Positions 1,435-62,810 of a DNA stretch of 64,000 nt are shown here, piece after piece (positions within the stretch are counted from its first letter, which is position 1; each line of letters begins with the position of its first letter). The notes under the pieces are model-generated. The model was not told where the DNA came from. It worked only from the letters and a program-made list of their open reading frames with translations, and made no database searches. Origin of the DNA: an uncultured bacterium (GTDB lineage Bacteria > Patescibacteriota > Saccharimonadia > Saccharimonadales > OFTM59); contig CBKXXB010000001.1 of assembly GCA_966685145.1 (NCBI GenBank), positions 633 through 64,632 of the forward strand. Reading direction: 5' to 3'. The translations under genes were made by a program, and so were the position numbers.

Positions 1435-1509
1435 ATTTTTTATACCCTCTTATTTATGCTCTATTTTATAAGACAGTTTGTATTCTTACGAAGCTTATAA
1501 TTACAACGT

Positions 1510-2457: not shown

Positions 2458-2499
2458 ACATTAAACAGTATACAGCATGTGGACAGTAGCAAATTATGA

Positions 2500-3393: not shown

Positions 3394-3435
3394 CTTTCAT
3401 ATTCTATCATTGAAGACATCAAGAAGACCGAAGGC

Positions 3436-16631: not shown

Positions 16632-16635
16632 ACAT

Positions 16636-17082
16636 CTAGTTTAACTCATCAATTGATTTTAGACGCCTCGTAAACCTGGCAGCTCCGGCAAACGGCGTTT
16701 TAAGCCATGTTTCAATAATTAAGTTTGCCTCATCTTTCTCAAGAATTCTAGCCGGCAAACAAGCAACGTTGCTATTATCGTCATTGCGGGACGACCGGGC
16801 AGATTCATAATCATAAAGTAACGCCGCGCGGACACCTTTAAACCGATTGGCCGCCATACACATGCCTTGTCCGCTACCACACAGTAATATGCCGCGTGGA
16901 TCAGGATCATCACTGGCAAGAAGTCGCGTAACGACCTTTTGTGCAAAAACCGGAAAGTCGTCGTTAGGATCTAAGCGCTTATCCCCCTCATCATCCACAT
17001 CATAGCCAGCTTTTTTCAGATACTTAACAAGTGCTTCGCGGAGATGAAAGCCATTATGATCAGCGCCAATATATATTTTCAT
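16636..17082 (-). CDS. rpiB: Ribose-5-phosphate isomerase B
   Basis: 148 aa. MKIYIGADHNGFHLRE and GILLCGSGQGMCMAANR are RpiB/LacAB hallmarks. Confidence 0.85.
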   Translation of the reverse strand: MKIYIGADHNGFHLREALVKYLKKAGYDVDDEGDKRLDPNDDFPVFAQKVVTRLLASDDPDPRGILLCGSGQGMCMAANRFKGVRAALLYDYESARSSRNDDNSNVACLPARILEKDEANLIIETWLKTPFAGAARFTRRLKSIDELN

Positions 17083-17097
17083 TGCACTCAGCCAGTA

Positions 17098-18114
17098 CTA
17101 TGTCTTATGCAACTGCTTGCCGACATCAGCGACAACTTCCACAAGACGGTTACTGTAGCCCCATTCATTGTCGTACCAGGCTACTACTTTAAGCATATTC
17201 TCACCAACCACCGCAGTTAGCTTGAGATCAACAATAGCAGAATGACTGTTGCCTATAAAATCGCTTGAAACCAGCTCTTCCTCGGTAACTTCAAGAATGC
17301 CTTGATAGTATGGCTCTTTAGCTGCTTTCTTGAAGGCTTCATTTACCTCTTCAACCGTAACAGAGCGCTTGGTAATAATTACGAAATCACTGAGAGAAAC
17401 TACAGGAGTCGGGACTCGAACCGACATGCCCCCGAAAATGCCTTGCAGAGCTGGCAGAGCCTGGCCGGCAGCAATAGACGCACCGGTGGTAGTAGGTACA
17501 ATATTCTCGGCCGCGTTTCTGGCTTCGCGTAAATCTTTGGCCGGCGCATCTTGCAGACGCTGGCTGGCCGTATAGCTGTGTACGGTTGTCATCATAGCCT
17601 TTTCAATGCCGAAATTGCTCTCAATAACCGCCGCTACTGGTGTTATACAGTTGGTAGTACATGAAGCGTTACTTATAATATTCTCGGCAGTTTCAAGCTG
17701 GTCTTCATTAACGCCCAAAACTATAGTAGTCGCTCCCTCACCTTTGGCTGGAGCCGAGATTACGACTTTCTTAGCCCCTGCATCAATGTGTGCCTTGGAT
17801 AGTTCTGGCTTTACAAAAAATCCAGTAGATTCAATGACCACATCCACTTCGTGTTTGTCCCAAGGCAAACTGGCTGGCTCTTTTTCAGCTATTACTGCCA
17901 CGTGCTTGCCATTTACAGTGATGCCCGCTTCATCGTAGCCAACTTCATGTTGATACGTACCGTAATTGCTGTCATGTTTTAGCAAATGAGCCAGAGTTTT
18001 TGTATCGGTAAGATCATTAATGGCCACAATCTCCATGTCTGATCTCTCAAACGCTACTTTGAATGCATTTCGTCCAATACGGCCAAATCCATTAATCGCC
18101 ACGCGCGTTTTCAT
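17098..18114 (-). CDS. gap: Glyceraldehyde-3-phosphate dehydrogenase (type I)
   Basis: 338 aa. INGFGRIGR NAD-binding start and the active-site ASCTTNC. Confidence 0.9.
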   Translation of the reverse strand: MKTRVAINGFGRIGRNAFKVAFERSDMEIVAINDLTDTKTLAHLLKHDSNYGTYQHEVGYDEAGITVNGKHVAVIAEKEPASLPWDKHEVDVVIESTGFFVKPELSKAHIDAGAKKVVISAPAKGEGATTIVLGVNEDQLETAENIISNASCTTNCITPVAAVIESNFGIEKAMMTTVHSYTASQRLQDAPAKDLREARNAAENIVPTTTGASIAAGQALPALQGIFGGMSVRVPTPVVSLSDFVIITKRSVTVEEVNEAFKKAAKEPYYQGILEVTEEELVSSDFIGNSHSAIVDLKLTAVVGENMLKVVAWYDNEWGYSNRLVEVVADVGKQLHKT

Positions 18115-45018: not shown

Positions 45019-46194
45019 ATGGATTTTGGAGCTTTTGAGCGCAATGTGTATGAACTGGCTGCCAATCTACGGGCAACACCAGTCGGCGAGAGCATTGATG
45101 ATTATCAAAAGTACCTGGGTCATCAGATAGCCCAGGCTATCAACACGAACCGCGATGAGCTTAGGGCCGAGTATCGGCTTGAGCCCAGCACAGATCTTGT
45201 CGACCGCCTGCAGCAACGGCTTGGAACCATTGCCGTACAATCCGATGAGGACACACGCGAGGGTTTGAGCGCTCTGGAGTGGGCACTAAGAGAAGATATC
45301 GAACATCGTCGTAAAATTGCCGAGTGGCTTGTGTCGGTCATCCCGAAAATGGAAAAGACGCAGACAAATTACCGGCGCGTAATTAAGTCTCTTCTTAATA
45401 AGCACGATCTTGTATATACAGAAGATGACATGCAGACAGCTGAAGAGGTTATGAACCCGCCCCGCCACGCTCACCTTGAGAGGGAAATAAAGAAAACGAG
45501 CGTTGACGAACTCGAAGACTATGAGTTAACCATAGTAGCTGAGGGGTTACTTAAAATCCTGGCCAAATTTGCACGACAAGGGCAACGGGTAAGGCAAGTT
45601 GACATGTATTCTCAACCAGACTTTATAAAGGTCGTGAGGTTAGTGAGCCCGGATGTGCCCGTTCGTCAAGCGCTTCACACAGCTTGGGGCATACTTACGG
45701 CATTCTTTGAGGACGAAGACCCTGACTACCAGCTATTCTCTGTAGAGGGCAAAGGTTTCAGCGGCAACTATATACTCAACGATCCGGATCTTGTCGAGGG
45801 AATCTGGGGCACAGAAGACGACACCGCCGAACAGCAGCCTGCAGATGCCGAGGAAGAGACCGAACGCGTCCGTCCATACCAAGGCCGCATAGTACGCATC
45901 ACCCGCAATAAATTGATACTGGATTCCGGTGATTACATACCACTCGAAGACGATGTACAGAGAGCAGCCGCACAACGGCTTTTAGACCGTGGGGCAGACT
46001 TTATCAGCACTGGCAGGCTCAGCCAGGAGATTTCAGAAGAGCTTCGTCAACCGCGCAGCGCCGTTGAGGAAAAGGCCCGCGAACTATTAAAATCGCTTGG
46101 GCCTAATTATCTCGAACGTCGCCTGAACCGCAAGAAAAACAAGGCTCTAGTTCGAATTCGTCCTAATGCCCGCGGTGTCATCCAGCCGAGATAG
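45019..46194 (+). CDS. Hypothetical protein (391 aa, ORFan)
   Basis: Long ORF with no assignable motif. It is convergent with the next gene, with only 1 nt between the two stop codons. Confidence 0.45.
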   Translation: MDFGAFERNVYELAANLRATPVGESIDDYQKYLGHQIAQAINTNRDELRAEYRLEPSTDLVDRLQQRLGTIAVQSDEDTREGLSALEWALREDIEHRRKIAEWLVSVIPKMEKTQTNYRRVIKSLLNKHDLVYTEDDMQTAEEVMNPPRHAHLEREIKKTSVDELEDYELTIVAEGLLKILAKFARQGQRVRQVDMYSQPDFIKVVRLVSPDVPVRQALHTAWGILTAFFEDEDPDYQLFSVEGKGFSGNYILNDPDLVEGIWGTEDDTAEQQPADAEEETERVRPYQGRIVRITRNKLILDSGDYIPLEDDVQRAAAQRLLDRGADFISTGRLSQEISEELRQPRSAVEEKARELLKSLGPNYLERRLNRKKNKALVRIRPNARGVIQPR

Positions 46195-46195
46195 A

Positions 46196-47140
46196 TTAGT
46201 CAGACAACTCGTACACGTCGGTGCCGAGAAAGAGATCTTCTCTTTCAGCTATATCAATGGCCCAGTTCCACAGCCTATTAATGGCCGATGTCCCGTTAAG
46301 CTTTGCCATGGCCGGGCAGCCCTGAGTTTCGAATGTTACGGCCGCTGACCCTACTGTCCTTGCTGAAGACGTGGATGGTGATTGTATTTGTACGATGGGC
46401 TGTTTGAAATCAACATACTCAGTACCGTCGCCTCTGGTTCTTAATTGAAGTGCTTGGACGTCTATAACAAACTGGGGGTCCAATGTCTCGCCGGCTAACT
46501 GCATCAATAATCCCGCAGCAGGCAGATGCTGGACATTTACAGCAGCCGCACGATTGATAAGAATGCTGCTTTGCCTGGCTATCTTAGCTATATCTTGCGA
46601 TTCAGCAGCCGGCAATTCGTTATTTGTGCGGTGGTTTCTTACAATACGGCTTACAGCCCGCAGAGCAGTTGTGGTTTCCTTTGCTGCAGTGCCTATACCT
46701 GATCGGATTAATTTTTCGGGTGACTCGTACCTGGCTCCTTCATAAGTTGAATTAAACACACTACAGACGTAACCCAGCCTTTGGTGTAGCGGAGTGGCTT
46801 CTTCTTCGTGCTTAGTAAGTACTTTTGCTGTCGCTGCACCTAGGGTAGGTCTGAGGAATTCATCCAATTCATAAAAGTCCCGCAGAGATGCCACGCGCTC
46901 CTCGCCCCAGTCAATGAGCCCGTAAGGCGGGAACTCCTGCTTGCCTTCAAGAGCCACGTCTAAAACCTCGTCTATAACGACTGCCAGTAAAGCGTATAAT
47001 TCAGGCCGCATTTCTTTGGCTCTGGCTACATTTTCCTGAAGATTCACTTCTTCGGGCATTAGGCCAATGTCGGGGACAGGCTCTATCAATGCTGGATCGG
47101 CTTTGTAGTCTTTAGCCATACTGACATAGGACGCACTCAT
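46196..47140 (-). CDS. Hypothetical protein (314 aa, ORFan)
   Basis: Long ORF with no assignable motif. Confidence 0.45.
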   Translation of the reverse strand: MSASYVSMAKDYKADPALIEPVPDIGLMPEEVNLQENVARAKEMRPELYALLAVVIDEVLDVALEGKQEFPPYGLIDWGEERVASLRDFYELDEFLRPTLGAATAKVLTKHEEEATPLHQRLGYVCSVFNSTYEGARYESPEKLIRSGIGTAAKETTTALRAVSRIVRNHRTNNELPAAESQDIAKIARQSSILINRAAAVNVQHLPAAGLLMQLAGETLDPQFVIDVQALQLRTRGDGTEYVDFKQPIVQIQSPSTSSARTVGSAAVTFETQGCPAMAKLNGTSAINRLWNWAIDIAEREDLFLGTDVYELSD

Positions 47141-47205
47141 AATTCAATATTCTACCACTTTTATATACTTTTAGCAAGTTTGTCGTCAAAGAGGATGAAG
47201 ATGAT

Positions 47206-47448
47206 GTGCCGGAAATTTGCCTCACGGTATCACACCCTGCAGTCGAAAGAGAGCACCGGATATATGATGACCGCGGCAAGGTTGTTAGCCGCCTAGTTCT
47301 TCAGGAACTATACGAGGCTCTCACCATAATTGTGACGTATGCGAACTCAGAGAGTGCCGGCAACATTCCACCCATAGATAGCAGCGACTTCCCCATTCCT
47401 GTTATTGACGCAGAGTTTCAAGCGTTGGCTTTGCGGCTCCAAAGTTAA
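47206..47448 (+). CDS. Small hypothetical protein (80 aa)
   Basis: Short ORF in the gap between two minus-strand genes. Coding status uncertain. Confidence 0.3.
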   Translation: MPEICLTVSHPAVEREHRIYDDRGKVVSRLVLQELYEALTIIVTYANSESAGNIPPIDSSDFPIPVIDAEFQALALRLQS

Positions 47449-47463
47449 ACGATTAGTTTGATA

Positions 47464-47976
47464 TCACGAAGTTTCCACAGCTACAGTTGGGTCTTTATCT
47501 AAGCTCACATAGTAAGCCGCGTCGCCATAAACTTCATACTCCAACCTAAGATATTCCTTATCCTCCGTTACGTCGGTACTGAACACTATGGGAGCACGGT
47601 CATCATTGGGTGGTACGATAACCGCCAGCTCATCGAACACGAGCTGATGTAACGGCGGCAATGAGAGCTCGGTTGCTTCATCATCGACCGCACTAGCTCT
47701 TATTCGCGTGTATGGTAATGGTTGAGCATTTGTAAAAGGATTTCTATAAACAAATACTATACCTCTTGTTGGTCGGAAAACTCCATCGTATCTAACCCTC
47801 CCGCCACTACGTCTAAGGTCAGGATTAGCCGCGACCTGATCAATGACATGTTGGGATAAGGTCACAAACGCACCAAGGGCTCTTGCTGTTTCTCTGTAAT
47901 GAGCGTAAATACCCGGGTCGGTATCAGGAGTTAGCAAGCGCCCCGGTGAGTAAGGTATAGGCTCTAGAGATCTCAT
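47464..47976 (-). CDS. Hypothetical protein (170 aa, ORFan)
   Basis: ORF with no motif. Part of a same-strand run of ORFans. Confidence 0.4.
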   Translation of the reverse strand: MRSLEPIPYSPGRLLTPDTDPGIYAHYRETARALGAFVTLSQHVIDQVAANPDLRRSGGRVRYDGVFRPTRGIVFVYRNPFTNAQPLPYTRIRASAVDDEATELSLPPLHQLVFDELAVIVPPNDDRAPIVFSTDVTEDKEYLRLEYEVYGDAAYYVSLDKDPTVAVETS

Positions 47977-48013
47977 TCGTAATTACTCCGCTTGGATTAT
48001 TTGCACTTACTGA

Positions 48014-48457
48014 TTAGGATGATGGGCCCAATATTTCAAGGCGCACGGTCCATTGATCACGGCCCCATTGGTTGTTTTGGTCTTGTGTAGTTTCGATGGC
48101 AGTATCATATCTGTCCCTGCCAGCAGCTTCGGCTACGACTTGCATAGCTGCTAGTGAACCTACTGCCCATGACTCATTCATAACTGTCCATGTGACGCTA
48201 GGTACCGTTGCTTCACGGTGACATCCAAGCAACACGCCGCCTATTTTCCGACCTTTAGCTTGCATGAATTCAGGTACAACAGCCCTGGCATAATCCAGTG
48301 CCGCCTCCGGATCAATGACGCCAACAGTTCCGCGTAACTGCGCAGCGGCCTCGGTTACTCTTTCGGCGTCCAAGGTTGCTGCTGCTTCGGGATAATCTTC
48401 AGAAGTAGGCCTCACCGGAAGCTTGGACCTAACTATAGGATCATTCATCAGACTCAT
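48014..48457 (-). CDS. Hypothetical protein (147 aa, ORFan)
   Basis: ORF with no motif. Confidence 0.4.
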   Translation of the reverse strand: MSLMNDPIVRSKLPVRPTSEDYPEAAATLDAERVTEAAAQLRGTVGVIDPEAALDYARAVVPEFMQAKGRKIGGVLLGCHREATVPSVTWTVMNESWAVGSLAAMQVVAEAAGRDRYDTAIETTQDQNNQWGRDQWTVRLEILGPSS

Positions 48458-48594
48458 AGTATCCCCTGTTTCTCCATACAGGTATACGCTTTAATCCTTA
48501 GTCAAGCAAGCATAAGTAGCTTCGGTTTTTTAGCCACTGTCGAGTAGGGTCGATTAAAATGTGCACATTACCGAGTTATGATAAGAAACTGTGA

Positions 48595-49434
48595 TTAACT
48601 GTGCAACGCAGAAGCTGCGCGGTCGTACAGTGGCTGCGATAAGACCGGATAAGGAATTGTAGCTCCGTGCGCAGCCGGTTCGCGCAAACTTCGACCCTCT
48701 ACGCGGGGAGTATAAGCCCCATAACCTGCACCAATAAAAGCAATGTCGCCTAGGATGCCCGCGGAATTACAGGCAGCTTCTTTACGCCTGTTATAGTCAA
48801 GAGGCGGATCGCTAGGATCAAATTCACTATCTACGACAGACATGTCCATCGCCTGGCAATATTCAACGCCAGCATCTCGTATCATGGTCTCTGGTTCTTG
48901 CGAAATTGCTCCGATTGCAGCAGTAATCCTTAAATCTTGTGTAAGGAACATTCTGGTGACAGAACCGGATGAATTGCCCACTACCGGCGCAGAACGGACA
49001 TCCGAGTCCTTCGCTACATATGTCATAGCAATGACGGCATCCGGACTAGGCATTGATAACCTGATCTGCTTGGTTACTCCATTGACTGTAGTAGTTATTG
49101 GTTCACTCTCTGCGAGTAATGTCATCAGTTTAAAGCCTATGTTGTGTTGCAGAGCCGCAACTCTAGAATCAGCGCCTCCCAGAATACCTATCCAAGTACC
49201 TTCAGTTGTTTGTCTGTAGCCTGATTCCCTCAGTGATTGTCTTAACTGTTCATTCGCTTCGGCATCATTAGTGGGAGCAGAAGCATTAGGTGCTTGCCAG
49301 GTAGTGGTAGGTCTTGATTCTACTTCAGGGGTTTCGCCCCCGCCACAGCCAGCAAGGACTCCTGTCATCAAAGTCGCCGCGACAAATTTTCTTCCTCTCA
49401 TATACGCTCTTTTTACCCTTATCGACTTGGACAT
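48595..49434 (-). CDS. Putative lipoprotein (279 aa, ORFan)
   Basis: N-terminal basic stretch and hydrophobic segment ending LAGCGGG, a lipobox-like L-A-G-C. Confidence 0.5.
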   Translation of the reverse strand: MSKSIRVKRAYMRGRKFVAATLMTGVLAGCGGGETPEVESRPTTTWQAPNASAPTNDAEANEQLRQSLRESGYRQTTEGTWIGILGGADSRVAALQHNIGFKLMTLLAESEPITTTVNGVTKQIRLSMPSPDAVIAMTYVAKDSDVRSAPVVGNSSGSVTRMFLTQDLRITAAIGAISQEPETMIRDAGVEYCQAMDMSVVDSEFDPSDPPLDYNRRKEAACNSAGILGDIAFIGAGYGAYTPRVEGRSLREPAAHGATIPYPVLSQPLYDRAASALHS

Positions 49435-49472
49435 TATGCGCCGTGTATGTTTATTTGTCCAAAAAGTTCAGG

Positions 49473-50747
49473 CTATGTAGCATTTATGTTTAAGCTCGCT
49501 TGATGAGTACCTTGAGCTTCGATTTCCTTGGTGTACTGTGCGATACGTGCACCTATTTCCCTGTCAAAATATTCAAAACCTGGCTGCAGGGCAGCTGCGT
49601 ATGCCAGCTTGTCGACTTTAGATACAGGACCAGACTTTCCCTTACCGAAGGGATGAACGATGAAGTAACGCTCCATTATGTTGCCGTAGGTCGTGATAAG
49701 GCGTGTGCCTAGACGCTGGCGCGAACCGACAGTTATTACACACTTTTCCGCTCGCTCCATCCCCAAGTGTCGTGGGGAAACCAAAACCACATGCGGACTG
49801 TACTGAGCATACATGCCTTGGTCCACGTAGTTTTTAACCTGAACTGGAATAATTTCATTTCTGCCAGGGATCATAGAACATAGCAGAATATCCGCACGAA
49901 AGCTTGGTTCTGAAGGATCGCGTAATCGGCCCCGCTCGAAGTCATCTGGAGCGGCAATAGGAAGATACGGCAGGTTCCGGGCCATCACCCATTCCTGTAA
50001 GACCAAGAGTGCCTCTGCTTCGGTTATTGCTGAGCACAAAAGGCCTAAGTGATCGCCCCATTCGTCGGCATGGTGCATCCAATTTGGCGTGTGCCTATCA
50101 TGAGGACGAGTTACCTTTACGCGCATATCTACTACATCCTCCAACTGCAGCTTCCCGGTCGAGTCATAATCGTTTTCAATGGCAATTACGCCGCGGTAAC
50201 CATTTAGCGCGTTGCCCAATATGCGTCGCTCATTCGTTGTGACGTCTTTTATTTCTCTTGCGACTTTCTCATCAGTAAGCGGCCCCTTTGCCGCTCGTCG
50301 ATTAATTTTGCTAATGGCTGAATTGACGAGTTTCCATGAATAGCCGACAAGATTAAAGTGAATAGTGTTTTTATCAATTTCTGAAATGTCGGACAGGGCT
50401 TTTTCCGGCAGTGTATGCGTCTCATCAACAGGACGCCTTGGTAGAGACCTAGCGCCGGGCGGCGGCATCGAGCTTCGTAGGTTAGCAGTCTCTTGCCTAT
50501 GGTTATGTCGGAACCGCCTCACCGATTCCGCCATATCAAGCAGCGCTCCATCTGCCGTAACAACGACTGGAGAAGGCGGACGGTCTGCCAAACTGTCGAT
50601 GTGGCCGTCAAGATATAGGGCCACAACCATATCTGCCAGACCGTTATTTATAACTTCATTAACCTTTTGCTGCGCAATCATTTCTTCGACTGTGTAGTCT
50701 GGGTGCTCAGGCAGTCTAAAGGCTGATACGTACTCATGTCCGTCCAT
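49473..50747 (-). CDS. Hypothetical protein (424 aa, ORFan) with a His/Asp-rich segment
   Basis: Largest ORF of the block, with no family assignable. It contains HDRHTPNWMHHADEWGDH, a possible metal-binding patch. Confidence 0.5.
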   Translation of the reverse strand: MDGHEYVSAFRLPEHPDYTVEEMIAQQKVNEVINNGLADMVVALYLDGHIDSLADRPPSPVVVTADGALLDMAESVRRFRHNHRQETANLRSSMPPPGARSLPRRPVDETHTLPEKALSDISEIDKNTIHFNLVGYSWKLVNSAISKINRRAAKGPLTDEKVAREIKDVTTNERRILGNALNGYRGVIAIENDYDSTGKLQLEDVVDMRVKVTRPHDRHTPNWMHHADEWGDHLGLLCSAITEAEALLVLQEWVMARNLPYLPIAAPDDFERGRLRDPSEPSFRADILLCSMIPGRNEIIPVQVKNYVDQGMYAQYSPHVVLVSPRHLGMERAEKCVITVGSRQRLGTRLITTYGNIMERYFIVHPFGKGKSGPVSKVDKLAYAAALQPGFEYFDREIGARIAQYTKEIEAQGTHQASLNINAT

Positions 50748-50868
50748 TAGATACTTATTCTATAATATTTCCTTGCATTTGCAACCATAAGGTGCTGCTA
50801 TTCTAGCTGCCGCCCAGCGGGTTGGGTGGAGCCCCTTAGCGTTAGTGTGTATTTCTGCCCCTGAAAAC

Positions 50869-51003
50869 CTAAATTTTGAAGAGGCCCTTGATGGCACGTT
50901 TGCGTGCAGTTGTTAGTTTTCGCTTGCCTTTTGTAACCGGAGAATACTTTTGCTTAATGGCCCTCTTTACAGCGCCTTTCTTAGAATACTTGAATAGTCC
51001 CAT
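50869..51003 (-). CDS. Basic micro-protein (44 aa) downstream of the E1-like gene
   Basis: Not in the ORF track. Translation MGLFKYSKKGAVKRAIKQKYSPVTKGKRKLTTARKRAIKGLFKI, about one third Lys/Arg. A strong SD (AGGAGGGG) lies 5 nt upstream of the ATG. Confidence 0.4.
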   Translation of the reverse strand: MGLFKYSKKGAVKRAIKQKYSPVTKGKRKLTTARKRAIKGLFKI

Positions 51004-51062
51004 ATCCCCTCCTCATTATTTAGCTTAAGCATATCATCTCTGCTCTGTTTTTGAATGGCTGG

Positions 51063-51872
51063 TTAGGTTAGCCATTTGTGACAATAGGGGCAAGGAGCAG
51101 TGTCTTTTTTGCTACTCCTAAGCGAGTTTAGGTCAGCCCTGTAAACCAGATGTTTGGCTGGAGCCGCCAAGCCGGTTATGAGTTTCACGGCTTCAGTAAT
51201 GGCCAAGGAGGCAACTGCACCGTTTAGACTAACTACCGAAGGACCACTCTTTTTTAAATCCTTAGCATCAACTCCGTAGATTTTGGCCTGTGTTTCTAGC
51301 TCAGCATTATTCATCCGATGAACCCTTATGTCCTGTTGGCTTAGCTCATCAAGGCAATACAAACAGCCAAGGCTGGTACCGGCAATTACTACACGACCAC
51401 CGTACGCAGCAGGTAAGTTTTCATCAGTTTGTACATCAGTTGCTACATCTATATACACTTTCCTTAACTCAGCAGCAGTTTGAGTTGCAAGTAACCGGGC
51501 ATAATCATTGTCTAATCCGCCCATGATTACATCCACGTCTGCTAATGTGGCTCGTAAATCGATGTCTTGTAAATAGTTATCAACTGTGGCAACGTCAGCT
51601 TTTGGTTGGATATTATGAATCAGACGTGCCGCAACTTCTACCTTCAGCCGCCCGATGTCTTCGGCTGTTGCACCGACCAAGCGGTTGAGATTTTTATTCT
51701 CTACTTTATCTCCATCGACCAATATAAATGTGCGAGCACCGAGATAGGCGAATTGCTGCGCAAAATGAGATCCAAGCCCGCCTAGGCCAAGTAGCGCAAA
51801 CTTTGTGCGTTCGATTTTCTTTTGGCCTTTTTTGCCGAAGAGTTCAGTTTGTCGAATATAACGGTCACTCAT
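51063..51872 (-). CDS. ThiF/MoeB-family E1-like adenylyltransferase
   Basis: Likely start MSDRYIRQTELFG at 51872. An alternative ATG at 51932 would overlap the JAB gene. Nucleotide-binding motif LLGLGGLGSHFAQQFAYLG. Two CxxC pairs (GCLYC, CPYC) consistent with the structural zinc site of MoeB/ThiF-type E1s. No other cysteine. The ATG overlaps the JAB stop region (ATGAGTGA). Confidence 0.75.
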   Translation of the reverse strand: MSDRYIRQTELFGKKGQKKIERTKFALLGLGGLGSHFAQQFAYLGARTFILVDGDKVENKNLNRLVGATAEDIGRLKVEVAARLIHNIQPKADVATVDNYLQDIDLRATLADVDVIMGGLDNDYARLLATQTAAELRKVYIDVATDVQTDENLPAAYGGRVVIAGTSLGCLYCLDELSQQDIRVHRMNNAELETQAKIYGVDAKDLKKSGPSVVSLNGAVASLAITEAVKLITGLAAPAKHLVYRADLNSLRSSKKDTAPCPYCHKWLT

Positions 51873-52374
51873 ATGCACCTTTTTGGATAGCGGACAGGCT
51901 GAGACCTGTTGGCCGAGTCGAATTGTCTTCAACGCGCAAACCAGAAAGCGTCTCCGGCTTATCCACTATGTGCCAGACGAGTGCGTCAAAGTCGTTTTCA
52001 GTAAAAACTAGCGCAACATATGGCCGACCTTTAAGCCGCCAGAGCATATGAGGAACCAACTCGGCTAGCCCGTCCATATCTGTCAGACTAAACTGAGCAG
52101 ACCATCCAAATCCATTATGAGCGTGCGCTTCGATCACCACGTAATTATTGGCATGCGCGTGTTTAATAATTTCAGGCCGCACATGATCTGCTAAGCCGAG
52201 ACCATTCCAGTTATGATGCGCGTAATCCTTTTCAGTCAGAAGCTTAACTTCCTTGACCATAAGCCTTTGCCCTGAGTCATCCATCAACGCAAACAAGAAG
52301 GCAATTTCCTCCGATTGACTAGCCAGGTAATCCTTCATCACTCTATAATCAGCGCGGGGAATCTGTAGGTCCAT
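51865..52374 (-). CDS. JAB/MPN (JAMM) metallopeptidase
   Basis: 169 aa. Upstream Glu (SEEIAFLFAL), then IEAHAHNGFGWSAQFSLTD. The ExnHxHx7-10Sx2-5D arrangement is characteristic of JAMM isopeptidases. Its start is 1 nt after the E2-like gene's stop. Confidence 0.7.
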   Translation of the reverse strand: MDLQIPRADYRVMKDYLASQSEEIAFLFALMDDSGQRLMVKEVKLLTEKDYAHHNWNGLGLADHVRPEIIKHAHANNYVVIEAHAHNGFGWSAQFSLTDMDGLAELVPHMLWRLKGRPYVALVFTENDFDALVWHIVDKPETLSGLRVEDNSTRPTGLSLSAIQKGAYE

Positions 52375-52375
52375 A

Positions 52376-52762
52376 CTAATTAATCTCCGCTAAACGATGT
52401 TTGAATGAGTGGGCAAAATGGAGCATACCCATGCCCTCACCCGGCACGCTACCGGGTTGCCAGTTTTCTAACTCCCAAGAAAATTTAAGCCACTGTCCAT
52501 CTCTGGGAACATCGCTGGAATACTCACTATTGCTTGGTTTATCACCGTTTGCCAGCTGCAAACCATCCCGTACCCAAAATGCATATGGCCTTTCTCCCGG
52601 AAAACCTGCCGGGATCTGAAATGCAATCTCGGCAGACTGCCGCCCCCAACCTATCGGCAGCAGGTAATTCTTGATGATTATCCAGTTCCCTTCCGCAACA
52701 TGCACAAGGTCTGGCCAGCGACTCCTGAGTGTCGCCAGTGAATGCTCAATCCACTCTTGCAT
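52376..52762 (-). CDS. E2/UEV-like (UBC-fold-like) protein lacking cysteine
   Basis: 128 aa. IAFQIPAGFPGERPYAFWV resembles the UBC/UEV 'FxIxFPxxYPxxPPxVxF' beta-hairpin signature. The protein has no Cys at all. It lies 5 nt downstream of the Ubl gene and abuts the JAB gene. Confidence 0.45.
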   Translation of the reverse strand: MQEWIEHSLATLRSRWPDLVHVAEGNWIIIKNYLLPIGWGRQSAEIAFQIPAGFPGERPYAFWVRDGLQLANGDKPSNSEYSSDVPRDGQWLKFSWELENWQPGSVPGEGMGMLHFAHSFKHRLAEIN

Positions 52763-52767
52763 AGCAG

Positions 52768-53016
52768 CTAGCCCCGCTTAAAGCCAATCTTTCGACTGAA
52801 ACCGTTCCCGGGCTTTACATCTACGGCTTCATTCTCGCGTAGCTCCCGCTCACTATTGTCCTTGAAGTCAATGATGAGTATTGGCTGATTATCGGTTATA
52901 CCAACTAACGTGCGAATTTCCGGCGGCGTAATTGTATCCTTATGCCAGTCATAATCTGTGCCTTCAAAGTTAATAGTATGCTTTGGCTTTTTCTCGTTAT
53001 TCTTCTCATTACCCAT
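52768..53016 (-). CDS. Small ubiquitin-like (beta-grasp, multiubiquitin-domain-like) protein with C-terminal Gly
   Basis: 82 aa: MGNEKNNEKKPKHTINFEGTDYDWHKDTITPPEIRTLVGITDNQPILIIDFKDNSERELRENEAVDVKPGNGFSRKIGFKRG. It ends ...KRG followed directly by the stop codon, so a terminal Gly is available for adenylation. Strong SD (AAGAGGAGAG) 6 nt upstream. It is the first gene of a four-gene block with E2-like, JAB and E1-like partners. Confidence 0.5.
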   Translation of the reverse strand: MGNEKNNEKKPKHTINFEGTDYDWHKDTITPPEIRTLVGITDNQPILIIDFKDNSERELRENEAVDVKPGNGFSRKIGFKRG

Positions 53017-53397: not shown

Positions 53398-53430
53398 GCA
53401 ATGAAACGGCGGCAATGAAACGGCGGCAAT
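53398..53430. repeat. Tandem direct repeat (14-bp unit, about 2.4 copies)
   Basis: GCAATGAAACGGCG GCAATGAAACGGCG GCAAT, read directly from the sequence. It sits at the distal end of the Ubl-operon leader, directly downstream of the 90-aa acidic ORF. Confidence 0.6.
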
Positions 53431-53440: not shown

Positions 53441-53713
53441 CTACGTATCTGTGTATTTCGGATGTTGCGGTTCCGGATAGGCTTCCAGGCCAAGAGCCTG
53501 TGCCTCGTGTATGATTTCGTTAGCCGCGGCTTCGGCTGACAGCTCAGAAGAATCCTCCACTCTCAGCCTGACCTGTACACCCCCACCATCTACAGGAACC
53601 ATGCTATCCAGAAGCGCGCTCATCAGTTCGTGAAAATCCAGACCGCCTTCTTCAGCTCTAACCACAAAATCAGGATCAGCACCAGCTTTTATCTCAGGGT
53701 TTCCATCGCTCAT
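53441..53713 (-). CDS. Small acidic hypothetical protein (90 aa)
   Basis: MSDGNPEIKAGADPDFVVRAEEGG... is Asp/Glu-rich with no Cys. It lies 23 bp downstream of the tRNA gene on the same strand. Confidence 0.4.
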   Translation of the reverse strand: MSDGNPEIKAGADPDFVVRAEEGGLDFHELMSALLDSMVPVDGGGVQVRLRVEDSSELSAEAAANEIIHEAQALGLEAYPEPQHPKYTDT

Positions 53714-53736
53714 AGATGACCTTATCTTACATTATA

Positions 53737-53809
53737 TGCCCCTGGCAGGATTCGAACCCGCGACCAACTCCTGCGAAGGAGACGCTCTAATCCGCTGAGC
53801 TACAGGGGC
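53737..53809 (-). tRNA. tRNA gene (isotype uncertain; anticodon arm irregular)
   Basis: Minus-strand sequence GCCCCTGTAGCTCAGCGGATTAGAGCGTCTCCTTCGCAGGAGTTGGTCGCGGGTTCGAATCCTGCCAGGGGCA. The 7-bp acceptor stem (GCCCCTG/CAGGGGC), D arm (GCTC...GAGC) and T arm (GCGGG-TTCGAAT-CCTGC) are canonical. No CCA is encoded. The anticodon arm folds only as a 4-bp stem with a 6-nt loop (TCTCC/TTCGCA/GGAGT), or as a 7-nt loop TTCGCAG (anticodon CGC) with a poorly paired stem. Confidence 0.6.
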
Positions 53810-53909
53810 GACTTCTCAATTATACATTTTTGTATCTATTTACTCTTTAGAAGCCCGTCTGCTATAGGTTATTGACTTTTTAGGGATTTTAGGGTAGAAT
53901 ATTCATAAT

Positions 53910-55142
53910 ATGACCGGTGGAAATGTGGAATTACCTTTCGGCGGTGAAATGGAGCCGACCGATTCAGCAGCACCATTATTGCAGGGTGTCGCCTTTGATG
54001 TAATACGAGTTCCTGAACGTCAGGATGCAATAGACGATATTCTCTCCCATCGACGCTGGAGCCCCGAGCGTCGCGTCAAAGAACTGAATACCAAAATCAA
54101 TGACGAATGGGACGACGAGCTGGGTATATCTTACACAGGAATTGAAGGCGAGGAGTTACCAGGCCTTACCATCCATGGCGTAGCCGAAAAGCTGGCATTG
54201 TCAGCTTGCGATGTGACAGATGGGAACTTCGAGGGTGCCAACTTAAACGCCGCCGTGATGACTGCCGTTGCTTTCCGCAGACTGCGAGCCCGCCATGCCA
54301 ATATGGATCATACCGTTTCTCCCCTGTCTTCTTTTGAAGGTGCTGATCTGGAAGACGTCACAGCCATCGAAGGTAATTTTGTCTTCGGAGACCTTAGTGA
54401 CGTCAAGGCGCGCGGTCTGACACTCACGAGCGGTTATCTATTCGGTACGAAAGGTTTGGAAAGAATCATCGAAGATGTGGCCGATATCCGTACTGCCCGG
54501 GTACTGCTGCAGGCAGCCGGCGTCACTGATCCATCCGAAACTCTGAGGGAAGCCTTGGCTGATCGCTTTATGGGCGTACCTGCCGCCCACATAGAGCGAC
54601 AGGTATCCCCTGTCCGCGTCATTCGGCAGGTTAACGCAGCCAACACCTTGCCCGACGAAAAGCGATTGGCTGGCGCAGTGCTTGATGACGTCATCCTAGC
54701 CGGGGCAGGTTTGCACGCCCGGATTATGACCGGCAGCATCTGGCACAAGGTACGGGCACGCGGTTTGGAATTCAGGGGCTCACGGGCAGCCGGATCAGTC
54801 GTACTTGATTCAGACTTGCAGAACATTGATGCAACCGGTCTATGGGTACCTGGCATGTTCGCAGCTAACACGAGCTTCAGGAACAGCGACATGACACGCG
54901 GCAACATGGCTGGTGCTGTTTTTTATAACTGCGATATGACGAATGTCGATACCGAGCGGACGAATGTCGATGGTATCGTCGTCATTGGAGGCCGACCGCC
55001 AGAGTTTGATGAAGAAACCATGAAGCGACTAAAGATTCTCGAGCTTGGCGACCTCCCTACCGCAGTTGCAGAGATAGTCTCGCGTATGGGCGCTTTGTCA
55101 ATTAGCGGACGCTCTACGGCTAACCGCGAGCTCGAACAATAG
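53910..55142 (+). CDS. Pentapeptide-repeat protein
   Basis: 410 aa. Multiple A(D/N)LxX-type pentapeptide units (GANLNAAVMTAV..., FEGADLEDVTAIEGNFVFGDLSDV..., FRNSDMTRGNMAGAVFYNCDMTNVD). Confidence 0.65.
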   Translation: MTGGNVELPFGGEMEPTDSAAPLLQGVAFDVIRVPERQDAIDDILSHRRWSPERRVKELNTKINDEWDDELGISYTGIEGEELPGLTIHGVAEKLALSACDVTDGNFEGANLNAAVMTAVAFRRLRARHANMDHTVSPLSSFEGADLEDVTAIEGNFVFGDLSDVKARGLTLTSGYLFGTKGLERIIEDVADIRTARVLLQAAGVTDPSETLREALADRFMGVPAAHIERQVSPVRVIRQVNAANTLPDEKRLAGAVLDDVILAGAGLHARIMTGSIWHKVRARGLEFRGSRAAGSVVLDSDLQNIDATGLWVPGMFAANTSFRNSDMTRGNMAGAVFYNCDMTNVDTERTNVDGIVVIGGRPPEFDEETMKRLKILELGDLPTAVAEIVSRMGALSISGRSTANRELEQ

Positions 55143-55161
55143 TTGCTCGAGAAGGATTTTT

Positions 55162-55794
55162 ATGCGTGAGCCGCTGTTTACACCCCGCAATCAGCCAGCA
55201 CGCGGTTTAATTATTGAAGGTGATCCTGAGTCGCGCCAAAAAGCACGCCTGTCCGCGGCTCTGCACCGCGCCATAAACCTCGCAATTGAAAGCGCATTTA
55301 GATATGGCGTTGATTTGCCTGTCGGTGCTGTAGCGCTGCAGAGTGAGGAAATTATAGGGCGAGGATTTGCTGGTGATATGCGATTCGGGCAACCACCGCT
55401 TCATGCCGAAATCATGGCACTACTGGACACACGATTTGATGTACAAGGAGGCAAGCCGGATACTGTGGTCGTGTCGACCGAGCCCTGCGTAAGATGCCAG
55501 GATAATCTGGCAGGAGAATCAAGTCTGAAACGTGTAGCGTTTGGTCTTAGTCGCAAGGATTTATCGGACAAAGGATTAATCAGACCCCATGGCGAAGACA
55601 TATTTGAGAGAGCAGAACGAGTCGGACTGCCATATGAGATTACAAGAATTGAAGACAACGACCTAAGGCTTGCGGGACTTACTATCTTTGATCATGTCAC
55701 CCGCGATCCCGGCACAGGGCTTGTAGAGGTTAATTCCGAAACTCTTAACGAGGCTCTTATGAGCTTAAATGAACATGGCCCTTCCGGCTCCTGA
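55162..55794 (+). CDS. CDA-fold zinc deaminase, TadA-like (tRNA adenosine deaminase family) with N- and C-terminal extensions
   Basis: 210 aa. VGAVALQSEEIIGRGFA ... PLHAEIMAL ... TEPCVRCQDNL ... RVAFG. The HAE and PCxxC zinc motifs closely resemble TadA. It carries extra N-terminal (about 40 aa) and C-terminal (about 60 aa) sequence. Confidence 0.65.
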   Translation: MREPLFTPRNQPARGLIIEGDPESRQKARLSAALHRAINLAIESAFRYGVDLPVGAVALQSEEIIGRGFAGDMRFGQPPLHAEIMALLDTRFDVQGGKPDTVVVSTEPCVRCQDNLAGESSLKRVAFGLSRKDLSDKGLIRPHGEDIFERAERVGLPYEITRIEDNDLRLAGLTIFDHVTRDPGTGLVEVNSETLNEALMSLNEHGPSGS

Positions 55795-55933
55795 TAACTG
55801 AATATTAAAAACACGGGCCAGGGCTTGCTTGTGCTTCTTGAGTGCGACTAATTGCCAGCGCAATCTGTTTCTGATTAGCGTACAGGTAGATTATGTTGTA
55901 TTATGATGAACAAAGTAAGCGCAGGAACAAAGC

Positions 55934-56149
55934 ATGAGGGAATTAATGCAACCAAAAATAGATGCCGTTGAAACAGGTGAAATGGCAAAGATTGAAGTAG
56001 CTCTTAGGCTTGTTGACGGCGGCCTTGTAGCGCTCGTCCACAGGGAGCTGGTATCTACGAGTGAAGTTTCCGACTTGCTTCTGGACCTGCGATCGGTGCT
56101 TGACCCGCAACCTCAGGAACCAGAAGCCGTTTCAGCTGCCCAGCAGTAA
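55934..56149 (+). CDS. Small hypothetical protein (71 aa)
   Basis: Short ORF. Coding status uncertain. Confidence 0.3.
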   Translation: MRELMQPKIDAVETGEMAKIEVALRLVDGGLVALVHRELVSTSEVSDLLLDLRSVLDPQPQEPEAVSAAQQ

Positions 56150-56219
56150 GACTTGGGCTAGCGAATACCACAACAATAATTACTTGCTAATGGTTAAATA
56201 TTAACGCTACAATTAGCGT

Positions 56220-56780
56220 ATGGGTAAAATGTTAGCACCCACTGCCGAAGCTATAGAAACACAAGGAGCGGTTCAAGACCGCTCCTTTTTCTTTTCTGTA
56301 GACGAAAAACCATCCTGGGGGCCTTGCGCAAATTCGCGCGTCGAAACCAACCGCGCTCGTAAAGTATGGAATCGCCACGAGAAGCTGCTGGCCGCCAATT
56401 CCGGACGTCTTATGTTAGCCGCCTGCTCGGAAAACGGCGAGTTAAGCCCCGTTACCGATCCAATGACTCAGGACACAGTTAGTTTGCACTTAGAAGCCAA
56501 AGATTACAGAGAGAAACACGAATACACATGGACAATTACCATTGGCAACCCGGCGCTTTGGACAATCCATACTCTACGCACCACGCCCGACTTCTTCCAG
56601 ACCACCTATAGGCAAGTCGACTCAGGCGGGCAAATACTCAAAGCAAGCAGTCATGTCAGTAGCCTGGCCTTGGCCAACAGCATCGGGATACTACTGTCGT
56701 ACGCCGACTCTGAGCAGCAAGTCCAAGCCGCAAGAGAGAGCACCTCAACCAATAGCCCCCAGCTAGAGATAGTAAAGTAA
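56220..56780 (+). CDS. Hypothetical protein (186 aa)
   Basis: ORF with no motif. Confidence 0.4.
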   Translation: MGKMLAPTAEAIETQGAVQDRSFFFSVDEKPSWGPCANSRVETNRARKVWNRHEKLLAANSGRLMLAACSENGELSPVTDPMTQDTVSLHLEAKDYREKHEYTWTITIGNPALWTIHTLRTTPDFFQTTYRQVDSGGQILKASSHVSSLALANSIGILLSYADSEQQVQAARESTSTNSPQLEIVK

Positions 56781-60719: not shown

Positions 60720-61493
60720 GTGAGCACAGAGAACACCCCCTCTACACCCGGCAAGCGATTCAATGTATCGCTTGATTATCGTTTCGTGATTGGACTGTTG
60801 CTAGCTGTTATCGCCGTCATGCTTATCATCTGGAAGCCATGGGCAACTGCAAAATTGGACGATAGCCGCACCATTGAGGTAACAGGCGAGGCTACACTTA
60901 AAGCAGAACCGGACGAATATATGTTCACGCCAGCGTACGAATTTAAAAACGCTGATCAGGAGGTAGCGCTGGCTGCCCTGACCAAAAAGAGTGAGGAAGT
61001 TATCGCAGGATTAAAAAATCTCGGAGTAGCAGATAATAAAATCAAGACAAACTCCACCGGCAATAACTTTTACCCCTACTACTATGACGAAGGCACCAAG
61101 ACCAATAACTATACTCTACAGATAACCGCCACCGTAGATAACCGTGAGCTGGCACAAAAAGTACAGGATTATTTGCTCACTACAACACCGACGGGTGCCG
61201 TTTCACCGCAGTTCACCTTTAGCGATGCCAAGCAAAAAGAGCTTGAGAGCAGAGCCCGTGACGAAGCGACTAAGGATGCCCGCGCCAAAGCCGAACAATC
61301 AGCCAATAACCTGGGCTTTAAGTTAGGTAAGGTCAAGGCCGTAACCGATGGTGCGGGCTTCGGACCTATACATCCGGGCTTTAGCCGCGGTGCTGAAGCA
61401 ACTACTATGATAGCCGAGGATCAAAAGCTGGCAGTACAGCCAGGTGAAAACGAACTTAGCTACTCAGTAACAGTCACTTATTATTTGCGCTAG
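60720..61493 (+). CDS. SIMPL-domain (DUF541) protein, membrane-anchored
   Basis: 257 aa. N-terminal TM, then RTIEVTGEATLKAEPD, a typical SIMPL start, and a C-terminal beta-rich region. Confidence 0.55.
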   Translation: MSTENTPSTPGKRFNVSLDYRFVIGLLLAVIAVMLIIWKPWATAKLDDSRTIEVTGEATLKAEPDEYMFTPAYEFKNADQEVALAALTKKSEEVIAGLKNLGVADNKIKTNSTGNNFYPYYYDEGTKTNNYTLQITATVDNRELAQKVQDYLLTTTPTGAVSPQFTFSDAKQKELESRARDEATKDARAKAEQSANNLGFKLGKVKAVTDGAGFGPIHPGFSRGAEATTMIAEDQKLAVQPGENELSYSVTVTYYLR

Positions 61494-62646
61494 CAGCTAA
61501 TGCGGTTTGCGGCCTGGAGCGTGCTCGTTTTAACTTGATCTCTTCCCACGGCAAACTCGGCTTGCCGAAGTGACCATAGGCTGCGGTCTGCAAATATATA
61601 GGCCGTCTGAGATTAAGCTGTTCAACTATACCTTGTACCGAAACGTCCAGCAGCGAGTCAGCAAAGCGCTGGATTCGTTCCGACGAGACTTTCTCTGTTC
61701 CGAAGGTATCTATGCCGAAATGAACCGGCCGTTTAGCGCCGATATAATAAGCAAGACTGACTTCCGCTCTTTTAGCTAGACTGTTCGCCACTATGTTCTT
61801 CGCCAAGTACCTTGCAGCATAGGCACCTGAGCGGTCGACTTTGCTTGGATCTTTTCCGCTAAACGCACCGCCGCCGACACGGGCATAGCCACCATAAGTA
61901 TCAACCACAATCTTGCGTCCGGTCAGACCGGCATCGGCCGCCGGTCCTGGATGATGCCAGACACCGGTACCGTTAACAACCAAGTCCTGCCTGGTTATGC
62001 TGAAGCCATAGTCATTCAGGACGGGCGCAACGATGCAGTTAAATATATCTTCTCTTACCCGCTCCAAACTAATCTTTTCATGGTGCGGAACCGCGAGGGT
62101 GACATGCTCGACGGCCACAGGCGCGTCGTTTTCATAGCGCACAACCACCTGGGCTTTGCCGTCCGGGCGTAAATGCGGCAACTTACCACCCTCCCGAGCC
62201 TCATCAATTGAACGGGTTAACCGATGAGCCAGGACAATCGGCAACGGCAGAAGCTCCGGTGTTTCATCGCAAGCATAACCGAACATTAGCCCCTGATCCC
62301 CGGCACCGAAGTCATCTACACCAACTGATATCTCGGGCGATTGTTCATGCACATAACACTCGATCGGCGAAGCATCACTGAAACCCCAGTCCGGCTCGAC
62401 ATAGCCAAGCCGCCTGATTTGCTTACGGGCAATGGACACGAAATCTACCTTTGCCTTGGTCTTAACTTCGCCGGCCAAAATCAGCCTGTTGTTGCAGGCC
62501 AGCGTTTCGACAGCAACTCGCCCAAGCGGATCATCCGCCAGCACCGCGTCAACTATAGCGTCACTGATAGCATCGCAAACTTTGTCCGGATGGCCGGCAC
62601 AGACGCTTTCGGAGGCGAACCTCCTTACCTTGTTTTGATGGGACAT
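61474..62646 (-). CDS. metK: S-adenosylmethionine synthase
   Basis: 390 aa. ESVCAGHPDKVCD, GAGDQGLMFGYA, and the C-terminal GGGAFSGKDPSKVDRSGAY glycine loop. Confidence 0.95.
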   Translation of the reverse strand: MSHQNKVRRFASESVCAGHPDKVCDAISDAIVDAVLADDPLGRVAVETLACNNRLILAGEVKTKAKVDFVSIARKQIRRLGYVEPDWGFSDASPIECYVHEQSPEISVGVDDFGAGDQGLMFGYACDETPELLPLPIVLAHRLTRSIDEAREGGKLPHLRPDGKAQVVVRYENDAPVAVEHVTLAVPHHEKISLERVREDIFNCIVAPVLNDYGFSITRQDLVVNGTGVWHHPGPAADAGLTGRKIVVDTYGGYARVGGGAFSGKDPSKVDRSGAYAARYLAKNIVANSLAKRAEVSLAYYIGAKRPVHFGIDTFGTEKVSSERIQRFADSLLDVSVQGIVEQLNLRRPIYLQTAAYGHFGKPSLPWEEIKLKRARSRPQTALAASANNK

Positions 62647-62810
62647 AAAAATATCCTTTCTGCCATGTCAGACGAGAAAGGACTGGTTCACGAATTTCTC
62701 CGCAAAAACATCTTCCCCGCTACTGGCGGGCTAGATGGAGCACCTTACAGAATCTGTAGGTTGCCGGCAGGTCGTCAAGCTAGATCTCTCGCTGCGCTCT
62801 TTATACTTTT
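62647..62810 (-). promoter_or_regulatory. Candidate SAM-I (S-box) riboswitch with terminator / RBS-sequestering hairpin in the metK leader
   Basis: The minus-strand leader reads ...UAUAAAGAGCGCAGCGAGAGAUCUAGCUUGACGACCUGCCGGCAACCUACAGAUUCUGUAAGGUGCUCCAUCUAGCCCGCCAGUAGCGGGGAAGAUG... It parallels S-box conserved blocks: AAGAG, GAGGGA-like, GAyGA, GGCAACC, AAGGUGCU..UCC, a P4-like hairpin, and GAAGAUG. A hairpin UCCUUUCU(n13)AGAAAGGA follows. Its 3' arm contains the SD, and it is followed by UAUUUUU and the AUG. Confidence 0.4.

Follow-up and report, generated by a model that had tools for sequence, protein, structure and literature searches.

A probable Bub-type ubiquitination-like operon with conjugation enzymes that lack catalytic cysteines in an uncultured Saccharimonadales bacterium

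Bub pathways are bacterial conjugation systems described in 2024 (Ye, Gong, Chambers & Corbett, bioRxiv 10.1101/2024.11.21.623953); they were previously known as '6E' or 'DUF6527' operons. According to that preprint, a Bub E1 has no cysteine in its crossover loop and carries one invariant tyrosine (Y370 in Citrobacter BubCD, Y342 in E. coli BubBD), and a Bub E2 has an invariant serine (S333 or S106) at the position of the catalytic cysteine, partnered by His and Asp in Type I and by Lys and His in Type II. The Citrobacter mutations Y370F and S333A/H335A abolished conjugation both in vitro and in cells, and the authors concluded that Bub runs wholly on oxyester intermediates. All Bub operons were stated to encode BubE, a DUF6527 Ser-His protease, and the Bub operon catalogue of a companion 2024 preprint was assembled from DUF6527-containing operons. 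Structures of the Bub proteins of Citrobacter sp. RHBSTW-00271 were released in 2025 (PDB 9EA4, 9EA5, 9EA8, 9EAE and 9EAV). Here we describe a related operon in a stretch of 64,000 nucleotides, called the window throughout, from contig CBKXXB010000001.1 of an uncultured Saccharimonadales bacterium (assembly GCA_966685145.1). Between positions 51063 and 53016, the minus strand of the window holds four closely packed open reading frames (ORFs) separated by stop codons, in the order ubiquitin-like protein (Ubl), E2, JAB peptidase, E1. We consider it probable that they form a complete and functional Bub-type ubiquitination-like operon that works through oxyesters on an E1 tyrosine and an E2 serine.

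Conserved residues of the E2 and E1 families

A first-pass annotation of this DNA had reported an E2-like ORF without cysteine. Its interval, 51063-52762, takes in the E2, JAB and E1 genes; the JAB and Ubl genes went unmentioned there. Translation of the 128 codons of the E2 ORF indeed yields no cysteine, and the Ubl and JAB proteins have none either. An alternative start cannot restore one, because an in-frame stop codon lies five codons upstream of the E2 ATG, and a sequencing error is excluded, since at least 24 contigs, the longest of 926 kb, encode the same proteins or versions that are 99% identical. The bare absence of cysteine from the E2 is nevertheless not significant in such a cysteine-poor genome: the 52 window ORFs of at least 150 amino acids contain 0.60% cysteine, 12 of them contain none, and at this frequency a protein of 128 amino acids lacks cysteine with a probability of 0.46. 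It may be that this Saccharibacteria lineage avoids cysteine throughout its genome. As the absence is unremarkable by chance, the evidence must come from the pattern at the level of the family.

The E2 is matched by Pfam Prok-E2_E (PF14462) at 28.8 bits, against a cut-off of 25, and its significant sequence matches in the PDB are solely to Citrobacter BubB. When the AlphaFold2 (AF2) model of the protein, with a predicted local distance difference test score (pLDDT) of 96.5, was compared with the PDB by Foldseek, the single significant match was again BubB (9eae_C; template modelling (TM) score 0.65, probability 1.0), with classical E2s far behind. Phage phi92 gp128 was a weak match (E=0.13). 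A word-indexed homologue search with the single E2 returned just the same protein at 99% identity, and a scan of the GTDB species genomes with the single E2 returned no relative; the operon is thus present in no species-representative genome at the pattern level. When 1.84 billion cluster representatives were searched exhaustively with HMMER, 324 relatives were recovered at E<1e-3, 98 of them at E<1e-10. The best 150 homologues were aligned with the window protein, which is at most 44% identical to any of them.

The alignment answers the question, raised by the first-pass annotation, of which residue is invariant at the UBC active site. Ser95, located inside an F-S-W...W motif, is conserved in 95% of 151 aligned E2s, whereas cysteine exceeds 14-24% in no column (maximum 14% in the best-150 alignment), and the E2 domain is entirely free of cysteine in 57 of 152 aligned proteins. 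The family therefore has no cysteine-rich column from which this copy alone could have lost its residue.

Two subfamilies can be distinguished. The first comprises 42 sequences in which Asp60, Ser95 and His97 are each 100% conserved (D-S-x-H). The second, which includes the window protein, comprises 156 sequences with Tyr60 and Ser95 each at 100%, while residue 97 is freely variable, mostly S, Q or A, and is Glu in the window E2. The hidden Markov model (HMM) of the D-S-x-H subfamily matched Citrobacter BubB at 58.6 bits, placing D299, S333 and H335 on positions 60, 95 and 97. With the Tyr-subfamily HMM the score was 28.9 bits and the alignment was shifted. A mixed, Tyr-dominated HMMER profile had set Ser95 opposite BubB S337; this assignment was rejected, given 28.9 bits versus 58.6 bits for the D299/S333/H335 alignment. 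By sequence, then, Ser95 is homologous to S333, the catalytic serine described in Citrobacter, and the window E2 falls in a sister subfamily in which an invariant Tyr replaces the Asp and the His is absent. The His/Asp or Lys/His partners published for the serine are missing, and Tyr60 is the obvious candidate for a partner that would activate Ser95, or even for a relay nucleophile.

A stronger role for Tyr60 can also be envisaged, in which this invariant residue, rather than Ser95 alone, serves as the nucleophile or as an obligatory relay, with a Tyr-to-Tyr or Tyr-to-Ser hand-off. Its complete conservation in the 156-member subfamily, in place of an Asp that is equally invariant in the other subfamily, speaks for this, as do the tyrosine nucleophile that the E1 of the same pathway already has and the free variability of position 97, which means that some other residue must stand in for His. 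However, Ser95 is just as invariant and is homologous to the E2 active-site position, and a tyrosine at the position of Asp299 is more simply explained as a hydrogen-bond partner or a general base. We regard the stronger role as improbable and retain Ser95 as the putative E2 nucleophile.

The E1, read from MSDRY, has exactly the four cysteines that had been reported for it, C170-x-x-C173 and C261-x-x-C264. Over an alignment of 129 sequences in all, among them the E1 genes of 7 related operons and 120 proteins from a profile search, these four residues are 99-100% conserved and align with the Zn-site cysteines of ThiF, which fits the earlier assignment to a structural Zn site. Among the 8,000 candidates that the profile search scored, more than 2,332 clusters passed E<1e-40. 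The MSDRY start is level with the starts of homologues, and public gene calls have the 269-residue form; a longer ORF from a TTG at 51932 adds one cysteine at the extreme N-terminus and overlaps the JAB gene by 68 nt. The cysteine pattern is the same in a second strain, L001, which is about 99% identical. Outside the crossover loop, the window E1 carries Gly, Ala and Val at residues 119, 133 and 162, where 99%, 92% and 84% of the family, respectively, carry cysteine; these absences fit the divergence of the window protein and the cysteine-poor proteome of the window.

In 126 of the 129 E1s, the stretch from the first CxxC to the GPS motif, and with it the crossover loop, is free of cysteine. 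The loop contains Tyr199, present in 129/129 sequences and followed by a Gly200 present in 128/129. Tyr199 aligns with Y370 of BubCD ('...ERGY...') when the JAB-E1 fusion of L011, an operon of the Asp/His type, is used as a bridge; the BubCD tyrosine has chain index 372, and was equated with Y370 using a two-residue offset that is also seen at E28. The L011 operon (1210-3258) has an Asp/Ser/His-type E2 as a separate gene beside a separate Ubl and the JAB-E1 fusion, and the 1.7 kb that this short contig provides downstream of it shows no DUF6527 gene; BubE-less, partly unfused versions may thus also occur in the Type I-like subfamily. In the AF2 model of the window E1 (mean pLDDT 82.6, core above 90), residues 194-212, Tyr199 among them, fall below 50. 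Such low values would be expected for a mobile loop, like the disordered crossover loop of BubCD. A PDB search with the crossover segment alone returned noise, in the form of a match to GMP synthetase. The adenylation residues R64, K77 and D121 are kept.

Could the E1 belong to a sulfur-carrier or biosynthetic module of the ThiF/MoeB-ThiS/MoaD type, and not to protein conjugation? Pfam ThiF matches it at 1.4e-39, its sequence also matches MoeB strongly, it has the ThiF/MoeB Zn site, and the Joint Genome Institute (JGI) annotates it as a molybdopterin-synthase adenylyltransferase. It reaches none of the NCBIfam cut-offs for ThiF or MoeB, however (the best, TIGR02356, gives 90 bits versus 275), and has neither a rhodanese domain nor a loop cysteine. 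Its best structural matches in Foldseek are the Citrobacter BubCD structures (TM 0.75-0.78), followed by ThiF, MoeB and UBA5, and it stands in a conserved operon with an E2, a JAB peptidase and a Multi_ubiq Ubl. A biosynthetic module is hardly credible on this evidence, and the E1 is better read as a conjugation enzyme.

The invariant E2 serine and E1 tyrosine also bear on two further options of the first-pass annotation, namely that the E2 is a non-catalytic adaptor of the ubiquitin E2 variant (UEV) type and that the Ubl is transferred directly from the E1 acyl-adenylate; both are disfavoured by them. The two options can be combined: the E2 would bind the target or the E1, and the E1 would transfer the Ubl straight from its acyl-adenylate or from a Ubl~Tyr199 ester. 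Consistent with this, the E2 lacks not only cysteine but also the His/Asp or Lys/His partners of the Bub E2 serines, an adduct of Citrobacter BubA with BubCD formed in the absence of E2, and oxyesters of unactivated serines are poor leaving groups by general chemistry. A pure adaptor, however, would not need to keep Ser95, which is present in every sequence of both subfamilies (156 and 42) within an F-S-W motif homologous to that of the catalytic S333. Moreover, S333A/H335A in the Citrobacter E2 abolished all conjugates, and the E2-independent BubA-BubCD adduct was still present in Y370F and was judged to be off-pathway. An adaptor E2 is therefore unlikely, and a catalytic E2 is preferred. The third option, a non-cysteine nucleophile such as a Ser/Thr oxyester, is the one favoured here for the E2, through Ser95; for the E1, the residue is most likely Tyr199, and not a Ser or Thr.

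The Ubl and JAB genes, the operon and its relatives

The two remaining proteins were recognised mainly through their families. Pfam Multi_ubiq scored the window Ubl at 21.6 bits, under its cut-off of 24.5, while a profile of 10 operon-linked Ubls gave a match at 5e-9 to PDB entry 9d59 ('Multi-ubiquitin domain-containing protein') and a weak one to Citrobacter BubA. All 10 Ubls share R81 and G82, and they end in R-G-stop or, in a fusion, in R-G followed by the E2. The window JAB protein alone had no match in Pfam or in the PDB. Six of nine members of its family matched Pfam Prok-JAB, and the family profile, run against the PDB, matched only the peptidase domain of BubCD (1.6e-7), in alignment with E28, H91, H93 and D104. 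The JAMM motif (E...HxH...S..D; Glu22, His84-x-His86, Ser96 and Asp99) is intact in the window protein and invariant in nine homologues. PADLOC v2 and NCBIfam recognised none of the Ubl, E2 and JAB proteins, and the PADLOC BilD model matched the E1 weakly, at 1e-7, over the Rossmann core.

Within the operon (Table 1), five nucleotides separate the Ubl stop from the E2 ATG, one separates the E2 stop from the JAB ATG, and the JAB stop overlaps the E1 ATG by 8 nt (ATGAGTGA). A Shine-Dalgarno-like AGAGGAG lies upstream of the Ubl gene. Promoter and terminator scans around the operon gave no useful excess over shuffled expectation.

Table 1. Genes and putative functional positions of the operon (window coordinates)
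Feature	Position	Strand	Remarks
Ubl gene (BubA-like)	52768..53016	minus	82 aa, single Multi_ubiq beta-grasp domain, C-terminus ...GFKRG
E2 gene (BubB-like, Prok-E2_E)	52376..52762	minus	128 aa, 0 Cys
JAB/JAMM metallopeptidase gene (BubC-like)	51865..52374	minus	169 aa, 0 Cys
E1 gene (BubD-like, ThiF-type adenylating enzyme)	51063..51872 from ATG	minus	269 aa, begins MSDRY
E1 crossover loop, residues 174-209 (LDELSQQDIRVHRMNNAELETQAKIYGVDAKDLKKS)	51246..51353	minus	no Cys; contains Tyr199
Ubl Gly82 codon	52771-52773	minus	stop codon comes directly after
E2 Ser95 codon	52478-52480	minus	proposed nucleophile
E2 Tyr60 codon	52583-52585	minus	at BubB Asp299 position
E1 Tyr199 codon	51276-51278	minus	proposed nucleophile

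Ten further operons, from unrelated metagenomes of soil, freshwater and other origins (L002, L004, L006, L007, L009, L010, L013, L094, L095 and L096), have the same gene order with a Tyr-type E2; a Ubl-E2 fusion occurs in L006 and a JAB-E1 fusion in L094. A helix-turn-helix (HTH) gene plus a Peptidase_M78-like gene or fused domain of the CapH/CapP type adjoins nine of the 10, the M78 match being below threshold in three; in L013, an HTH gene only adjoins the operon. Defence genes, including McrBC, AbiGi, GmrSD and Cas3, often lie near the related operons. By this guilt by association, the window operon probably has a role in stress response or antiphage defence. The L096 operon (IMG/VR UViG_3300044960_000921, 2703-5870) is a complete Tyr-type operon of M78 peptidase, Ubl, E2, JAB and E1, followed by a dCTP-deaminase-like gene, on a 143-kb contig classed as viral; the Tyr-type system may therefore be carried by a phage or prophage in this case.

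DUF6527 (PF20137), the domain of BubE, had no Pfam match among the tested ORFs at approximately 45-57 kb of the window and none in the 10 related operons by precomputed Pfam or our own scans, with a PF20137 model that was run in both cases without a positive control. It appears that the published catalogue, seeded with DUF6527, missed a large BubE-less sister group, which amounts to at least 156 of the 214 E2 sequences collected and to more than 2,300 E1 clusters at E<1e-40. Apart from the subscription journals, which were outside the scope of our survey, the literature held no 'Type III Bub' and no description of PF14462/PF14452 beyond the 2024 Bub preprints.

Next, we considered whether the window copy is a decaying, non-functional remnant that lost a catalytic cysteine in this lineage only. 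Its proteins are the most divergent of their families, with an E2 no more than 44% identical to any homologue and an E1 that lacks three cysteines conserved at 84-99% elsewhere, and no regulator genes adjoin it. On the other side, there is no family-wide catalytic cysteine to lose, the operon occurs on at least 24 contigs, and all four ORFs are intact, with starts that abut or overlap the upstream stops. Every motif residue is retained: the JAMM motif, Gly82, Ser95, Tyr199, the Zn site and the adenylation residues. Across the four genes, the window and L001 differ by 13 synonymous and 6 non-synonymous codon changes (dN/dS, the ratio of non-synonymous to synonymous rates, is roughly 0.15, from few sites), none of them at a catalytic position, which indicates purifying selection rather than decay. 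The remnant explanation is thus very improbable and largely refuted, and an intact operon under selection remains the preferred reading.

Proposed pathway

From the domain identities, residue conservation, operon architecture and purifying selection documented above, we infer every chemical step of the following pathway. The ThiF-type E1 would bind the Ubl and adenylate its already exposed C-terminal Gly82. Tyr199, on the mobile, cysteine-free crossover loop, would then attack the adenylate, giving a Ubl~Tyr oxyester, and the Ubl would be handed on to the E2, where Ser95, occupying the position of the canonical catalytic Cys, would carry it as a Ubl~Ser oxyester. The E2 would finally transfer the Ubl onto a lysine of the target. 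The four cysteines of the E1 would form a non-catalytic, structural Zn site, as in MoeB/ThiF-type enzymes. The JAB protein would act as a deconjugating, negatively regulating enzyme, and in relatives with a Ubl-E2 fusion also as a processing enzyme; deconjugation is its most likely function in the window because the C-terminus of the Ubl requires no processing and, in the absence of BubE, JAB is the only peptidase available. The first-pass annotation had called any such mechanism unusual. So it is, but cysteine-free chemistry is not a new mechanism, having been established for Bub systems in 2024.

Several observations weigh against this interpretation. BubE was not found, though the published work states that every Bub operon has one, and no CapH/CapP-type regulator adjoins the window operon. 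The helper residues published for the E2 serine, His and Asp in Type I and Lys and His in Type II, are missing from the window E2, which has Tyr60 and Glu97, and the closeness of Tyr60 to Ser95 is predicted solely from the alignment of the former with BubB Asp299. Even in Citrobacter, the published E2 mutant is a Ser/His double mutant, in which the effect of the serine alone is not isolated (10.1101/2024.11.21.623953). The window E2 also differs from the consensus of its subfamily at R4 (Trp) and E8 (Ser), both on the N-terminal helix, and at N112 (Gly), and in the window E1 many positions that are conserved elsewhere deviate from the consensus; the window copy therefore represents a divergent lineage.

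A more far-reaching interpretation is possible, though we hold it as doubtful: the operon could belong to a third class of cysteine-free Ubl systems that has not yet been catalogued. Such a class would have four separate genes, JAB as the sole peptidase and no DUF6527/BubE, would be abundant in metagenomes and reach into the reduced genomes of Saccharibacteria, and would use an E2 Ser95/Tyr60 pair in which Tyr60 either activates Ser95 or carries the Ubl itself in a Tyr-to-Tyr/Ser relay.

The E2 active site of the BubE-less sister group, with Tyr in place of Asp and without His, amounts to a natural experiment in making a serine oxyester reactive. Retention of the operon under purifying selection in an ultra-small (~0.9 Mb), episymbiotic genome of the candidate phyla radiation (CPR) suggests a real fitness role, and so minimal a version, in which a pre-matured Ubl of one domain is joined by small enzymes without fusions and cysteines are almost absent, would suit biochemical reconstitution.

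Genomic setting and comparison with known systems

The operon lies within about 12 kb of ORFs (45019-51028 and 53441-56780) that mostly have no match in Pfam, PADLOC or NCBIfam. The unmatched ORFs include those for proteins of 391, 314, 170, 147 and 424 amino acids and for a lipoprotein-like protein of 279 amino acids; on the other side of the operon are a 410-residue pentapeptide-repeat protein and a 210-residue CDA-type deaminase. A deaminase-domain gene is also found 2 kb upstream of the L010 operon. Immediately upstream of the window operon is a tRNA gene (53737-53809, minus strand; Rfam 56.2 bits) to which ARAGORN assigns no anticodon. Its anticodon arm is one base short, with a 6-nt loop (T-CTCC-TTCGCA-GGAG-T), which is not a read error because the copy in L001 (8980-9052) is identical. 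It could be an unusual tRNA, a pseudo-tRNA or the mark of an integration site, and the 12-kb region may be an acquired island adjoining it. The genes around the island are housekeeping genes: pheT, uvrB, mgsA and metK (61474-62646, minus strand), the last with a SAM-I (S-adenosylmethionine) riboswitch directly upstream (62705-62809, minus strand; Rfam 50.7 bits), which is an ordinary arrangement. The window UvrB is 80% identical to that of Candidatus Saccharibacteria/Saccharimonadales metagenome-assembled genomes.

Two strain-level differences were observed nearby. A direct tandem duplication (TTGCCGCCGTTTCA x2, approximately 53400-53430) lies in the spacer between a 90-residue ORF and the Ubl gene, and the blastn alignment with L001 breaks at this duplication, which suggests copy-number variation. 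Five kilobases from the operon, L001 has an additional ~1.2 kb (16562-17796) relative to window positions 46195-46202. This insert holds a gene for a 341-residue flavin adenine dinucleotide (FAD)/pyridine-nucleotide oxidoreductase between the genes for the 314- and 391-residue hypothetical proteins.

Canonical thioester cascades (eukaryotic Ub/Ubl, Bil and Cap2) have a catalytic cysteine on both E1 (in the crossover loop or the CYS domain) and E2, which is absent from the window proteins and from their families. UEV proteins of the Mms2/Uev1/TSG101 type share with the window E2 a UBC-like fold without catalytic cysteine; they conserve no nucleophile at the position of the active site, whereas the window E2 has the invariant Ser95, by alignment homologous to a BubB residue required for conjugation. 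ThiF and MoeB, which act with ThiS and MoaD, have the same E1 fold as the window protein, as minimal E1s of the homodimer type, and the same CxxC...CxxC Zn site. ThiF uses a crossover-loop cysteine, C184 in E. coli. Unlike the window operon, these systems include neither an E2 nor a JAB protein.

The Bil systems of Types I and II (bacterial ISG15-like) likewise have Ubl, E2, JAB and E1 each as a gene of its own, four in all, and are found in defence islands. The Bil E2 differs from the window E2 in having a catalytic cysteine and thioester chemistry, and the window E1, a single-domain ThiF-type protein, matches BilD only weakly. Type II Bub (6E.2; E. coli ZDHYS365 BubA/BubBD/BubE) shares with the window operon the separate Ubl gene and cysteine-free conjugation through an E1 tyrosine (Y342) and an E2 serine (S106). 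It has an E2-E1 fusion, usually no JAB, always BubE, and Lys and His at the serine, none of which is true of the window operon, in which E2 and E1 are separate with a JAB gene of intact JAMM motif between them.

The closest system is Type I Bub (6E.1; Citrobacter sp. RHBSTW-00271 BubAB/BubCD/BubE), which has the same four catalytic modules: a Gly-ending Multi_ubiq Ubl, a Prok-E2_E E2 with a serine at the catalytic position, a JAMM peptidase and a ThiF-type E1 with an invariant tyrosine and no cysteine in its crossover loop. The best PDB match of each window protein is a Bub protein or a member of its family, and CapH/CapP-like regulators are common to Type I Bub and the relatives of the window operon. 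In contrast to Type I, with its BubAB and BubCD fusions and its BubE, the window operon has all modules as separate genes and no DUF6527 match, and its E2 has Tyr60/Glu97 in place of Asp299/His335. The window Ubl is single-domain and pre-matured, the stop codon following directly after the Gly; the window E1 keeps CxxC...CxxC, the first CxxC of which is not visible in the aligned BubCD sequence; and the host is a CPR bacterium. The operon departs from the published definitions of Types I and II in three features, BubE, fusion architecture and the helper residues of the serine, and it thus appears to be an undescribed variant of Bub, neither Type I nor Type II.

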